Assembly: GCF_057098645.1 (NCBI RefSeq)
Contig: NZ_CM169472.1
Length of the DNA: 64,000 nucleotides
Reading direction: 5' to 3' (one strand)
Shown here: positions 56,001-62,000 of the stretch, in pieces
How positions within the stretch are numbered: position 1 is the stretch's first letter
How the letters are laid out: the number at the start of each line of letters is the position of its first letter
Position numbers: made by a program

Positions 56001-59000
56001 TAGCGATACCGCCGGAATAATCCCCTTAACCACGTAATCCAGTTGCGTGTCGTATCCGGTAGATCCAACGCTCATCGGTAGCGTGGTTTTTCGCTGGTGG
56101 TTTTTTTCTTCCGCCGGCTCTTTCCCGCGCACCCGTTCCAGGTATTCGCGCCAGTTCTCCCGCATATGGTTGTGCATCCCTTCGGGGTAATAATTCGCAT
56201 CAGTTACACCCGCCGCCGCCAGCTTGTGCGCAATGGCATTAATATTTGATGGCCTGATGTGGCCTGCCTTGTACAGCCGGACACAATAGCGCCCCTCGTC
56301 GATGATTCTCAGGTCTGCCAGTTCATCCAGTTGATCATCAGCCAGCACAACGGGAGGCACATTATCGCCAGCCAGTCGCCCGTCCTGTTCCTGCCACTGT
56401 TTCGCATGTGCCCAGGCATCACTACCCGCAAAAATAATGACTTCGGTCATCTTGTCGTAAGGCTGTTTTTTTAAGTTCGGTGCGCTTTTCATTTCTTGCC
56501 CCTGAATCCGTTAACTGCGTATTCCGCTCTATTCGATCACGGATTGGCATCGAAGTCCGATCAGCGATTCGCATCCATTCGATCAACCGGGAACTTAACT
56601 TTTTCTACCGCTTTTTAACGCGTTTTTTCGCTGCTTTCCACTACCGGGGGATTTTTCCTCAGTGACTCTCCCTGAAGGACCACTCGGTGTGAGTTATGTA
56701 CCAGTCTGTCCAGGATGGCATCTGCTGTTGTTGGGTTCTCCATCAGACCATGCCATTTATCTACCGGGAACTGGCTTACCACTATCGTGCTGCTTTGTCC
56801 GTAACGATCCTCTATGAGCTCCAGAAGGTCATTACACTGGGCGTTACTTAACTGTTCCAGCCCCAGATCGTCCAGGATTAGAACCTGTATTTTTTGCAAC
56901 TGTTTCAGATATTTCAGCCAGCTGCCATCAACACGTCCCTGAGCCAGTTGTTCCAGTAATCGCCCGGTTCTACAGTACCGGACGCTGTGTTTCTGTCGAC
57001 ATGCCTGTTCGCCCAGCGCATTGGCTATCCAGCTCTTGCCACATCCTGTCGGACCGGTTATCAGCAGGTTTTTCCTGTGGGTTATGTAGTGGCCGTTCAG
57101 CAGTTCTCTCATCTGTTCAGCCCGCAGACCTCTTGAGGCCGGATAGCGCAGCCCTTCCGGTGTTGCCTGGTATTTCAGGCCGGCATTTTTTCTCAACCGT
57201 GCCACACGGCTGTTTTCCCTGCTCAGAAGCTCGTCATCAACCAGCAGCGTCAGCCTTTCCTCGAACGACAGTTCGTCGTAGGTCTGAGGCGTTTCCCGCT
57301 GCCGTATCAGGCTCCCGGCCATCGCCGGGAGTTTCAGTTGGGTCAGTTTGTTTAACAGGTTATCACTCATACTGTTGTTCCTTCTGTCAGTGGTAGTAGC
57401 CCGGACCACGCAGGTTTTCATGCTCTGAAGCATATGCCGGATGTTGTTCGCCCTGGCGGGATAATGGAAGCTCCAGGTTCTCCCGATGGTGACGCAGCAG
57501 ATTGTCGATAAAGCGTCTGTCAGGGGCGTTATAGTGCAGGGCAACGTAACAGGCCTTTTCCAGCCGTTCCGGGCCGTATTTTTTCTGAAGTGCCAGCAGC
57601 CCCAGAACTGCACGATAAGCCAGTTCCGGATGGGGTTTTGCCTTCAGCATGGATTCAACCACCCGGCCTGTGGACGGGCCCGTACGTTTTCCCTGCTCGA
57701 TCAGGCGTTCCGGTGTCCATGTCCCGTGCTGCCGGTGGCGCTCTGGCATGTGAAGCGGATTGGTTGTGTGTTTATATTCATGTGTGCTGCGCGGATGTTG
57801 CGCCACACACTGCCCCTTGTGCCAGAGCTGTACCACCGACTGCCCCGCCTTCAGTGACAGACGCTGACCGACCAGTTCGTGTGGAACGGAGTACCAGTGA
57901 CGGGCATATTCAACGTGGTAGTCAGGGCCAACCTTCACAGCTTTGTATTCCGTGTATTCATAAGGTGCCAGAGGCAGCGGAGAGAGTGCTGGCGCATCCA
58001 GTATGCGGAAGCGTTCTGCACGGGTTTGATTGCCGTACCCCTTCATTGGCCGGTTATTCATGTCTGTCAGTAACTCCCTAAGGCGCGCATTCAGCGCCCT
58101 GAGCGTGTGGAAGGTTTCATTACGGATGCGGGCAAGAAGCCATCGTTCAACGATGAGGACGCCGTTTTCTGCTTTTGGTTTATCTTTAGGTTTGCGTGGT
58201 CGGGCCGGGATGATAACCGTGCCATAGTGCTCAGCCAGTGCCTGATAACTGTCGTTGATGACAGGCTCATATCGATCGGCCTTTTTCACTGCGCTTCTGA
58301 GGTTATCGGGGATGAGCAGCTTCGGTACGCCGCCCAGGAAGGTCAGGCAACGGCTGTGGGCATTTAACCATGACATCATGTCCTGACCTTCGCACGCTTC
58401 AACGTAGGTATAGTTGGACGCCCCCATTACGGCCACGAAGATTGCCACGCGGCGTATCTCACCGGTGTCCGGATTAATAACAGGAACCGTAGGACCACAG
58501 AAGTCGATAAAAAGCTTTTCGCCGGCACGATGCTCCTGGCGCATGGAGAGACGTCGCGTTTTTTTCCACTCCCGGTAGCAACGGCAGAAGTGCGAGTATC
58601 CCATCGCTTTGTTACCCGCCTGTGCCTTGTATTCCATCCACAACAGTTGCCGCGTCACACCTGGTTTTCTCATTTCCGTATCGAAGTACAACATGTCAGG
58701 CATTACAAGCTCTGATGCAAAGGTGTCTTTGGGCGGAAAAATGAGTTTCTCCAGCGTGTCATGGGATATATCAGCAGGTAATGGCCATGACAGAGAAGAG
58801 GCTTTGAAGCGGGCAAGAACCTCAAAAACGGTTGAGGCGCTGATGTGTAACGTCAGTCCGATACAACGGTTAGTCAGCTTCTTGTCGAACTTGAGCTGAA
58901 GGATCTTAAAACAGGTTTCCATAGTGCTCCTGGATTTTCTCTTTCTGGACATTGACGTCTCCACTGGTTTAAACACGGCAATGGAGACTGTGGTGAAAAG

Positions 59001-62000
59001 AGTTAATTCCCGGAGTGACTGGCAGGATGCCAATCAATGATCGGAAGCATGCCAAATCGTGATCGATTGTGATGCCAAACTGTGATCGGAGATGGATGCC
59101 AAATCATGATCGATTCGAATGCCAAACTGCGATCGATTCAGATGCCATTTTGCACGTTAACCATGGTTTTCAGCTTCTGGATGTTTGCCCGTGCCCTGGC
59201 GTTGCTGGTGGGCACGTTATGCGGCGCGGTCTGTACCAGAGAAAAATCACGCCGGAACTGATAAACAGGCATCACGCAATCATATTCGTAACCTTCACGG
59301 CGGTAAGTTACGCACCGTCCCGCCACGCCCTTAATCATTACCGTGCCGCCGTACTGGTCGCGGTAAATATCACCGCGCGTAAATTTAGGGTGAGTGTTGC
59401 CACTGGCAGTTAAGCCAGAATATTTAAGTTTCATTATTTTTATTCTCCGGTGTGCTGTTCTTTATATCTGTCGTGCAATAGATCTATTTTTTGCAGTTCC
59501 ATTATTACAGGCTCAAGTAGCGTTATTAATGCCGTGGCAATTCTTGATTTTTGTTTGTCGCGTTCATTATCTCCAAGCGTGTCAAGCCATATGCGCAATA
59601 TTTCCAGCATGTTTTCACTGTGAGAAAGTGCAAGAAATGCGCGGTCTATTGTTTCAAGGTAAATATCACGCATATTAATCCCCGTCCGTCGTTTTTCTTA
59701 AAACAACTTCTGTCACGAAATCAGCATAGTTAGCGGCAATATCAAGAATATTTAGCCCTGTATCCCTGTGCTCATCAGTGCAAAGAAAGAAAAAAGCCAC
59801 CAGCATAATTTCAGATATTGACGAAAGCGCATCAGCCGCATCATCAGGAACGCCGGAAAATTCCTGTTTCAGGGAATTAAAACGATCATCACGCATAACC
59901 CCGTTACTTTATTCGTACCCCTTATAATGGGGTGTTAGCCAGCCAGACCCGGCATGATTACTGCCCCCAGTCGTCCATGATCCGGGGGGTGATGTCACCG
60001 GGTCTGGTGGGGCGCTGGTAACCGCTAATAGGGGTCAGGTCAGGCACTTTTGCCGGGACCGTCTGTAACGTGGATGCCGGTACCTGCTCCCCGTGGTTAT
60101 CTGGTTAACCCATATACAAGGGAGACAGAATGACCGAATCCAGCGATTACGAATCCGTCCAGGTCTTTATCGGCGTTGATGTCGGTAAAGATACGCATCA
60201 CGCTGTAGCCATTAATCGTTCAGGTAAACGCCTGTTCGATAAAGCATTACCCAACGACGAAAACAAACTCAGGTCGCTAATATCTGACCTGAAACAACAT
60301 GGTCAGATACTGCTGGTTGTTGATCAGCCAGCTACCATCGGTGCGTTACCTGTCGCCGTTGCCCGCTCAGAAGGAGTCCTTGTCGGATACCTCCCTGGAC
60401 TGGCCATGCGCCGCATAGCCGACTTACACGCCGGTGAAGCTAAAACTGATGCTCGTGACGCTGCCATCATTGCCGAAGCTGCCCGTACCCTGCCTCACGC
60501 GCTACGCACGCTGAAACTGGCTGACGAGCAAATCGCCGAACTCTCCATGCTCTGCGGCTTCGATGATGATCTTGCCGCACAGACAACGCAGGCCAGCAAC
60601 CGTATCCGCGGCCTTCTGACCCAGATACATCCGGCACTGGAGCGCGTTCTCGGTCCGAGACTTGATCACCCGGCGGTACTCGATCTTCTCCAGCGATATC
60701 CCTCACCAGAAAAACTCGCTTCGCTGGGTGAGAAGAAGCTGGCAGCCCAGCTCTGCAAACTTGCGCCTCGTCTGGGTAAACGCCTTGCAGCAGACATAGC
60801 TCAGGCACTGGCCGAACAAACCGTCGTCGTTCCCGGCACGAATGCCGCTGCCGTAGTACTGCCACGTCTGGCACTCCAGCTCATCACGCTGCGTAAGCAA
60901 AGAGACGAGGTGGTGCTTGAGGTAGAACAGCGAGTTCTTGCTCACCCTCTTTACCCGGTCCTGACCAGTATGCCCGGAGTCGGTGTCAGGACCGCAGCCA
61001 GACTCCTCACCGAGGTCGCCTGCCGCGCCTTCGCCTCTGCCGCACATCTCGCTGCTTATGCTGGCCTTGCGCCGGTAACTCGGCGATCCGGCTCGTCAAT
61101 ACGCGGTGAGCATCCCTCGCGACGGGGTAATAAAGCTCTCAAACGGGCGTTGTTCCTGTCGGCCTTCGCCGCGCTCAGGGATCCGCTCTCCAGGGCTTAC
61201 TACACCCGCAAAATGAGTCAGGGAAAACGACACAATCAGGCGCTTATCGCCCTGGCGAGACGACGCTGCGACGTTCTGTTCGCCATGATGCGCGACGGGA
61301 CTTTTTATACCCCGCAGGCGTCATAACATGCTTGACAACTTAATAGGGGCACCCCCCATTTTCACAATCAGCAATAAGAATATTTTTAGCGTCATTCAGC
61401 GACCGCGTGGCGGTGTATCGGATACATTCCAGGGCGAACTGTGTCCGGTCTTTCTGTTCTTCTCCCTGCGCAAGCTCTGCAGTGCATTCAATATCGATAA
61501 GCGCGTGCATCAGCGTAGTGAGCGCGGCGGCTGCTGCGTCCGGTGTGGTTTTATTGCACATGGCACACCTCCTGACGAATACGGGCGGCGAATACAGCAA
61601 CACAACCGGACGGGCAACGGCTACGCGCTTCGCGTTCCGTCCAGGCGGTTACGTGGATGATTTGAGATTCTCCGGCACTCAGTGCCAGAAAACGCCACAC
61701 AAAGGCCGTTTGTGTGTGTACAAGGTGTGGTATATGATTTACAGCAACCATAACGGCTCCTAGTTTACGTTGTTGGTTAGAAGCCCTGCGAGTGGTAACG
61801 ACACTTGCGGGGCTTTGTCTTTTCATCGATTACCTTGATAAAGGTGTCAGCCACTATATTAGTAACGGGTGTCAGCCACGTCAATAGTGTTTTTCCGTTT
61901 TCTTGTGTGTATACTGTCAGCCACCTAATAACGAGGAAATCAGATATGGCAACAAAAGCAGTTAATGCAAAATCCAAAAAGCTTGAGGCTCGAGTACCAC

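Follow-up and report, generated by a model that had tools for sequence, protein, structure and literature searches.

A complete insertion sequence of the IS21 family, ISSso4, interrupts the early operon of an island that looks like a capsid-forming PICI (cf-PICI). Its target is the 3' end of a DUF4222 gene, 23 bp upstream of the start of a helicase gene, in the 64,000-nucleotide stretch of contig NZ_CM169472.1 (assembly GCF_057098645.1) that we call the window. The identity of the element, its exact ends, the target duplication, the empty site and the resulting gene changes are directly observed. From these we infer, for transcription and replication, that the satellite has likely lost induced helicase expression through polarity and is now decaying and impaired in its replication. 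The element and its parts are the following:

56516..59154, minus strand: ISSso4-type IS21-family insertion sequence, complete, 2,639 bp, with full-length 100%-identical copies in E. coli; its istA-side (left) end is 59154 and its istB-side (right) end 56516
57387..58922, minus strand: istA transposase, 511 aa, intact, with HTH, DDE/rve and Mu-transposase C-terminal domains (NF033546)
56615..57370, minus strand: istB AAA+ helper ATPase, 251 aa, intact (NF038214, PF01695)
59026..59154, minus strand: left terminal inverted repeat, made of five direct repeats at a spacing of about 23 bp, core CGATCnnnnTTTGGCAT, and a terminal partial copy
56516..56590, minus strand: right terminal inverted repeat, with a single clear repeat at 56531-56550 and one or two degenerate ones, terminal ...ACGCA-3'

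An earlier note had placed an IS21-family element at 56500-59166; it is indeed present, and that span missed the true ends by 16 and 12 bp. Many unrelated sites in E. coli carry full-length copies at 100% identity, and these copies define the ends. All six copies that were fetched start with TGCAAAATGG and end with GAATACGCA, the same tips as in the window, and each is flanked by its own target duplication of 4-7 bp. Identical 2,639-bp copies reside on chromosome and plasmid at unrelated sites, in up to 34 places per genome. The name ISSso4 is the RefSeq/PGAP label carried by identical copies (their istB is an 'IS21-like element ISSso4 family helper ATPase IstB') and also appears in ISfinder-based papers; the identity with these labelled copies supports it indirectly.

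Both genes, whose coordinates were transferred to the window from RefSeq genes in identical copies, score above their NCBIfam equivalog cut-offs: istA reaches 284 bits against 160 (NF033546; Pfam domains rve and Mu-transpos_C_2) and istB 257 bits against 200 (NF038214; PF01695, IstB_IS21, 2.4e-60). They are separated by 16 nt. The motif ATGCCAAAYYGTGATCGATT has five matches at no more than three mismatches in the window, against 0.02 expected: four on the plus strand at 59049-59138 and one, inverted, at 56531-56550. Tandem Repeats Finder gives the end repeats a period of 23, the spacing described for IS21-family ends (PMC10122671). Inverted arrays of such repeats had been proposed for both ends; the istA end does carry one, of five copies plus a partial terminal repeat that finishes at the element tip TGCA, whereas the istB end holds a single clear copy besides the degenerate ones. 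The tips, TGCA... and ...CGCA, fit the 5'-TG...CA-3' rule of the family. The element thus shows istA followed by istB, ends built of repeats spaced by about 23 bp, a short target duplication and an empty site, as IS21-family members do.

With the exception of its insertion site, the window element differs in nothing from the copies labelled ISSso4: ends, gene pair and the 4-7 bp range of duplications are the same. It also resembles the prototypes IS21 and IS5376 in its DDE transposase IstA and AAA+ helper IstB, its direct repeats of about 23 bp, its terminal 3'-CA and its short duplication (PMC10122671). However, five left-end repeats are found here, compared to the two (L1/L2) drawn for the prototypes, and 7 bp are duplicated, compared to 5 bp for IS5376 in vitro (PMC10122671).

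The insertion site comprises three features:

56509..56515, no strand: target-site duplication CGTTAAC, helicase side
59155..59161, no strand: target-site duplication CGTTAAC, DUF4222 side; as on the helicase side, defined by intact-island alignments that overlap by exactly 7 bp
59138..59434, minus strand: DUF4222 gene with an IS-derived C-terminus (PF13973, 2e-23; empty-site reconstruction and comparison with intact copies)

Alignments to intact islands, which lack the istA/istB element, stop exactly at 56515 and 59155. At 99% identity or more, 411 complete E. coli genomes contain the empty site with a single CGTTAAC, and they annotate a DUF4222 protein and a helicase RepA family protein there. 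The comparison with uninterrupted islands that the note had called for therefore confirms a true insertion; the distance of 10-15 bp upstream of the start that it gave has to be corrected to 23 bp, counted to the ATG at 56492. That istA and istB are native to the island, a reading whose sole point in favour is their location inside it, has virtually no chance of being right, being ruled out by the empty site, the 7-bp duplication and the identical copies elsewhere.

The same junction was not met again. Among 5,426 complete E. coli genomes, no record spanned both sides of a 400-bp junction query; exact matches to 40 bp of the junction were absent from GTDB species representatives and metagenome contigs; and an exact-sequence look-up of the chimeric DUF4222 protein returned no record. 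By these searches the insertion site is new; the element itself is already known, and we regard the event as a routine mobile-element insertion that reveals no new system. The closest chromosomal backbone is that of O145:H28, at 99.8% identity.

The 98-aa ORF whose last codons had been seen to overlap the IS end is the DUF4222 gene, with ISSso4 inside its 3' end. Its native C-terminus ...MVNGFRGKK* now reads ...MVNVQNGI*: the last six codons were exchanged for five read from the element, and the DUF4222 domain (residues 16-68) is unaffected. In intact islands, the DUF4222 stop overlaps the helicase start (ATGA). Downstream of the insertion, in the direction of the operon, lie:

55092..56492, minus strand: RepA-family helicase gene, 466 aa, intact (PF13481 AAA_25, 2.4e-43; RefSeq 'helicase RepA family protein')
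54903..55092, minus strand: candidate replication origin, five AAAGTGAGR copies (four direct, one inverted) immediately 3' of the helicase gene

The helicase kept its Shine-Dalgarno sequence AGGGG (56499-56503) after the insertion and differs by 2 aa from the O157:H7 and O145 copies. The gene had been labelled a primase/helicase. Its helicase part is borne out by a RepA-type AAA_25 domain at residues 148-315, the only Pfam/NCBIfam domain of the protein, and by RSF1010 RepA (1g8y) as the closest solved protein by sequence. A primase domain was not detected by Pfam/NCBIfam, residues 1-150 giving no domain even at E = 10. Residues 3-129 weakly match part of a PHROGs 'DNA primase' family (5e-13), and the AlphaFold model, of moderate quality (mean pLDDT 63), finds chains of T7 gp4 as its best Foldseek hits, weak ones at E = 1.5e-3 and TM <0.2. 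On present evidence, the gene should not be called a primase. All five AAAGTGAGR matches of the 64-kb window fall within the 190-bp stretch behind it, against 0.73 expected; these repeats may serve as a replication origin.

The host island, located between phoQ and roxA, measures about 16 kb without its two insertion sequences. That it is a satellite, as first proposed, agrees with islands of the same replication module, which carry a satellite-type gene set. Cf-PICIs such as EcCIEDL933 have in common an integrase, an AlpA-like regulator, a replication module and a full HK97-type head/packaging set (bioRxiv 10.1101/2025.02.11.637232). Here, a Phage_integrase domain (63189-63983, in a gene running off the window), an AlpA-like excisionase/regulator (62626-62814) and a replication module of RepA helicase, SSB and candidate origin repeats follow the order of the intact island L002. 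The HK97-type set is represented by eight Pfam domains, all in intact ORFs between 47321 and 53706: capsid, protease, portal, head completion protein, connector, HNH, small and large terminase. The closest intact relative, an island of strain 07-4299 with 98.3% identity, has neither tail nor lysis genes in its annotation. Unlike those cf-PICIs, to which it is likened by gene content, the window island is a mosaic with two IS insertions in its early operon. One island type matches its packaging half at 98.3% identity; the replication half matches, at 99.4%, a smaller PICI type that occupies this site in O157:H7 and O145.

The second insertion sequence and its surroundings are these:

59899..61357, plus strand: ISEc20 (IS110 family), opposite to the operon; ends accurate to about 3 bp, from alignment with four other copies in different flanks
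59675..59896, minus strand: C-terminal half of an operon gene interrupted by ISEc20, with its N-terminal half at 61358-61603
61856..61884, minus strand: best candidate for the native operon promoter, TTGACG-17-TAATAT, upstream of an icd-like gene

The ISEc20 transposase occupies 60130-61326 (NF033542, 239 bits; RefSeq 'IS110-like element ISEc20 family transposase'). The gene that it splits lies 750 bp further upstream than ISSso4; its two ORFs match phrog_2512 at positions 1-76 (N-terminal half) and 78-146 (C-terminal half), and removing ISEc20 in silico restores a single ORF of about 155 aa. In intact islands the operon genes are tightly packed on the same strand and overlap one another. The candidate promoter at 61884-61856 has a sigma-70 score of 12.3, the second-best in the whole window on both strands; from this consensus match it may be the one that drives the operon. 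ISEc20 is located between it and the helicase gene. The claim that the helicase had been cut off from a promoter upstream is thus correct as to physical separation; the loss, however, is that of an unbroken operon and of the ATGA coupling, not of a dedicated promoter just upstream of the gene.

On the minus strand, no consensus promoter or intrinsic terminator was found from istB to the helicase start, nor any intrinsic terminator within or after ISSso4, and the intervening RNA shows no excess of structure over shuffled sequence (z = +0.9). Scanning 46000-64000 against Rfam gave no hit at E <=0.1; the search thus placed no known regulatory RNA in the island or in its insertion sequences.

The course of events reads as follows. 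A copy of ISSso4 landed near the end of the DUF4222 gene and duplicated the 7 bp CGTTAAC. DUF4222-helicase translational coupling was removed, and the helicase gene, still preceded by a ribosome-binding site of its own, now starts 23 bp from the istB-side IS end. Between it and the genes upstream lie 2.6 kb of ISSso4 DNA, and ISEc20 contributes a further 1.5 kb to its distance from the promoter that probably serves the operon. Most likely, the helicase and the genes behind it would then lose induced expression, with weak istAB read-through remaining. With neither an outward or hybrid promoter nor a terminator after istB in sight, such a polar loss, tempered only by weak istAB read-through, therefore appears the most likely outcome: the helicase gene is probably under-expressed and dependent on read-through. 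The absence of decay in the helicase gene is a counterpoint to polar loss: expression and selection of the gene may continue, or too little time may have passed since the insertion.

The insertion could also be near-neutral, with read-through from istAB or from the upstream operon supplying enough helicase for the satellite to work. We hold this to be rather unlikely. In its favour, ISSso4 is oriented as the operon, the minus strand lacks the terminators sought above, no stable structure precedes the helicase start codon, and the helicase gene, the candidate origin and the DUF4222 domain are all untouched. However, transcripts from the candidate native promoter must cross 1.46 kb of ISEc20 in antisense and then a 216-nt untranslated stretch before istA. 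Antisense passage through an insertion sequence and untranslated RNA favour Rho-dependent polarity. Translational coupling is lost as well, and the promoter candidates of istA itself are not strong, the best scoring 5-6.

Replication could also have been rewired by the insertion, as the earlier note had suggested: an outward or hybrid promoter at the right end of ISSso4 would make the helicase constitutive, independent of helper phage and AlpA. The right end does face the helicase start at a distance of 23 bp, with the ribosome-binding site still in place. An outward -35 in the right end and the formation of hybrid promoters are moreover reported for IS21-family elements, for instance for ISKpn7 with blaKPC and ISBf1 with cepA (PMC9330008). 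The arrangement is alike, an IS21-family right end directly upstream of an intact gene of the same orientation. In contrast to those cases, the 23-bp flank here offers no usable -10 and the IS tip no good -35, and therefore activation is not supported at this junction. In a position-weight scan, the best hybrid promoter across the junction of IS and flank scores -1.2; within the last 25 bp of the element, the only -35-like hexamers match 3/6 positions; and the best complete outward site from the istB stop to the IS tip scores 4.8, with 2.3 such sites expected by chance. Abutting the two ISSso4 ends as in a junction promoter gives at best 5.1 at zero spacer, and more only with favourable spacer bases; there is therefore no clear built-in outward -35. 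Unlike in IS21 and IS5376, no junction or outward promoter is thus recognisable by consensus scan, in which a simple sigma-70 matrix was used that could miss a weak or non-canonical promoter. No sigma-70 promoter being detectable at the IS end, we consider rewiring quite improbable. Slimmer still is the chance that low-level istAB read-through or a cryptic IS-end promoter turned the helicase and the genes behind it constitutive rather than helper-induced. If true, island replication would no longer be coupled to phage induction, and the island would have taken a first step towards autonomous replication or domestication.

Even after a polar loss of helicase expression, part of the island could remain active: a separate promoter may serve the packaging genes from the perC-capsid gap, whose best sites score 7-8. 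With two insertion sequences in its early operon, the function expected of a cf-PICI, induction by a helper phage and transfer in small capsids of its own making that join phage tails, appears doubtful. For annotation, this copy should be scored as an IS-disrupted island, with two insertions in the early/replication operon, and not as an intact satellite. It adds to the cases in which phage satellites of IS-rich E. coli lineages are worn down by insertion sequences.

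ISSso4, an IS21-family insertion sequence, occupies 56516-59154 on the minus strand (2,639 bp). The earlier note had placed such an element here, and with small coordinate corrections it is confirmed by NCBIfam and Pfam matches, repeats and 100%-identical copies. Across 56200-59500, an ORF listing and the sequence itself show two adjacent minus-strand genes between repeat-rich ends, given below with RefSeq gene coordinates transferred to the window:

57387-58922, minus strand, istA (511 aa)
56615-57370, minus strand, istB (251 aa)

The larger product matches the NCBIfam equivalog 'IS21 family transposase' (284 bits, cut-off 160) and carries Pfam rve and Mu-transposase C-terminal domains; the smaller is an 'IS21-like element helper ATPase IstB' by NCBIfam equivalog (257 bits, cut-off 200), with Pfam IstB_IS21 at 2.4e-60. 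The previously described repeat motif ATGCCAAAYYGTGATCGATT has five matches in the 64-kb window at up to three mismatches, against 0.02 expected: four on the plus strand at 59049-59138 and one inverted at 56531-56550. Inverted-repeat pairs join both ends, and Tandem Repeats Finder gives a period of 23 bp. These 23-bp repeats are shared with described IS21-family ends, which combine multiple direct repeats 23 bp apart with a terminal 3'-CA (PMC10122671).

By direct reading, the tips TG...CA lie at 59154 and 56516, with CGTTAAC flanking both sides. Full-length, 100%-identical copies of the 2,639-bp segment occur at many unrelated sites on E. coli chromosomes and plasmids, at as many as 34 places in a single genome, and RefSeq labels these copies istA and 'IS21-like element ISSso4 family helper ATPase IstB'. 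All six copies fetched with 60-bp flanks start with TGCAAAATGG and finish with GAATACGCA; they sit in unrelated flanking sequence, and a separate direct duplication of 4-7 bp borders every copy. Because of the full-length 100% matches, shared ends and transferred gene coordinates, the window element is regarded as an intact copy of a catalogued IS, and apparently a recent one. ISSso4 is heavily expanded in some E. coli isolates, many from poultry (29-34 places per genome), and in three chicken strains one copy adjoins a 'head decoration protein' gene like those of a small PICI type; matches on satellites may therefore be recurring.

If ISSso4 and one CGTTAAC are deleted computationally, the two flanks join into an uninterrupted sequence. 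This empty site is present in 1,219 complete E. coli genomes at a coverage of at least 80%, 411 of them at 99% identity or more, and is always annotated 'DUF4222 domain-containing protein' next to 'helicase RepA family protein'. BLAST alignments of the window with two intact islands break exactly at 56515 and 59155, with a subject overlap of 7 bp. The element is thus a true insertion, and the operon break is equally real: the restored DUF4222 gene ends in ...MVNGFRGKK*, its TGA overlapping the helicase ATG (ATGA), whereas the window copy (59138-59434, minus strand) ends in ...MVNVQNGI*, its stop codon within ISSso4. The insertion spares the Pfam DUF4222 domain (residues 16-68). The tip lies 23 bp from the helicase ATG at 56492, rather than the 10-15 bp first estimated, and an AGGGG ribosome-binding site is kept between them at 56499-56503. 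Searches of 5,426 complete E. coli genomes, the GTDB representatives and metagenome contigs gave no match to the window's ISSso4 junction, and no record of the chimeric DUF4222 protein turned up; the insertion therefore looks strain-specific and is probably recent.

The host island is located between phoQ and roxA and has the following genes:

runs past the window end, minus strand, integrase
minus strand, AlpA-like regulator
minus strand, icd-like gene and several small ORFs
minus strand, DUF4222 protein, RepA, SSB and PerC
minus strand, full HK97-type head/packaging set (capsid, prohead protease, portal, head completion protein, connector, HNH, small and large terminase)

By its gene content, the island fits the published criteria for capsid-forming PICIs (bioRxiv 10.1101/2025.02.11.637232), with which it shares the integrase, the AlpA-like regulator and the complete HK97-type set; tail and lysis genes are absent from the nearest intact relative. 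We compared window 44000-64000 with the islands of O157:H7 (L001), strain 07-4299 (L002) and O145 (L009). Window 44000-54654 is 98.3% identical to the 07-4299 island, while 53922-56515 and 59155-59902 are respectively 99.4% and 90.7% identical to a smaller PICI type, which occupies the same site in O157:H7 and O145 with a different capsid/decoration/small-terminase module. These alignments show a mosaic island: the HK97-type packaging half matches one type, the replication half matches the smaller PICI, and the crossover falls at about 53922-54654 in the perC/ssb region. The chromosomal flank is nearest to O145:H28 (99.8%). About 5% of flank 24000-46770 is absent from otherwise 99.8%-identical O145:H28 genomes; the match falls in two pieces and involves an autotransporter gene, and may reflect another strain-specific insertion or deletion.

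The helicase gene itself (55092-56492, minus strand) is intact, with just two residue differences from its counterparts in O157:H7 and O145. Its 466-aa product, named 'helicase RepA family protein' in RefSeq, has AAA_25 (residues 148-315) as its sole recognised domain, and RSF1010 RepA is the only solved protein found for it by sequence. For residues 1-150, a Pfam search relaxed to E = 10 gives no match and the PDB no meaningful one; in PHROGs, residues 3-129 weakly match part of a 'DNA primase' family. The AlphaFold model (mean pLDDT 63) has a moderately confident alpha/beta N-terminal domain, and its fold matches, T7 gp4 (E = 1.5e-3, TM < 0.2) followed by RAD51/RadA, are too weak to interpret. 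On these results the 'primase' part of the earlier 'primase/helicase' label is at most tentative. Directly 3' of the gene, the 190 bp at 54903-55092 hold all five AAAGTGAGR matches of the window (0.73 expected), four direct and one inverted, making this a plausible candidate for an iteron-type replication origin.

A second insertion sequence, ISEc20 (IS110 family, about 59899-61357, plus strand), had been missed. It lies some 750 bp further upstream than ISSso4 and splits a phrog_2512-like operon gene into pieces matching the two halves of that family:

59675-59896, minus strand, operon gene piece
61358-61603, minus strand, operon gene piece

Its in silico removal restores a single ORF of about 155 aa. 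All five compared ISEc20 copies start with CCCGTTACTTT after a C-rich flank and finish with GGGGCACCCCCC, a hint that the target has a short conserved core, in line with expectation for the IS110 family.

In intact islands, overlaps of a few bases between successive genes, from the icd-like one to RepA, indicate a single operon. Its probable early promoter, the minus-strand consensus match TTGACG-17-TAATAT at 61884-61856, directly precedes the icd-like gene and ranks second among all sigma-70 matches of the window. A 263-aa ORF (61777-62568, minus strand), probably spurious, falls in the variable stretch that separates alpA from the icd-like gene and overlaps better-supported plus-strand ORFs such as a phrog_949-like one (61805-62125).

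Hybrid promoters of IS21-family elements are documented elsewhere (PMC9330008); nothing in the sequence favours one at the ISSso4/helicase junction. From istB to the helicase start, a consensus scan of the minus strand found no sigma-70 promoter or intrinsic terminator, and the RNA of this stretch shows no folding beyond that of shuffled sequence (z = +0.9). A position-weight scan gave nothing above chance at the right end of ISSso4 (best 4.8, with 2.3 such sites expected) and at best -1.2 for any promoter across the junction.

Both ISSso4 and the kind of satellite that it entered are already known, and insertion sequences routinely disrupt genes. The earlier interpretation is partly supported, in that the insertion and operon break hold; silencing or rewiring of the replication module is a proposal. 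The helicase gene has lost its translational coupling with the DUF4222 gene and now lies about 4.1 kb further from the candidate promoter, with ISEc20 in antisense and ISSso4 in sense orientation between the two. The most likely result would be strong polarity on the helicase gene, with at most weak read-through from istAB.
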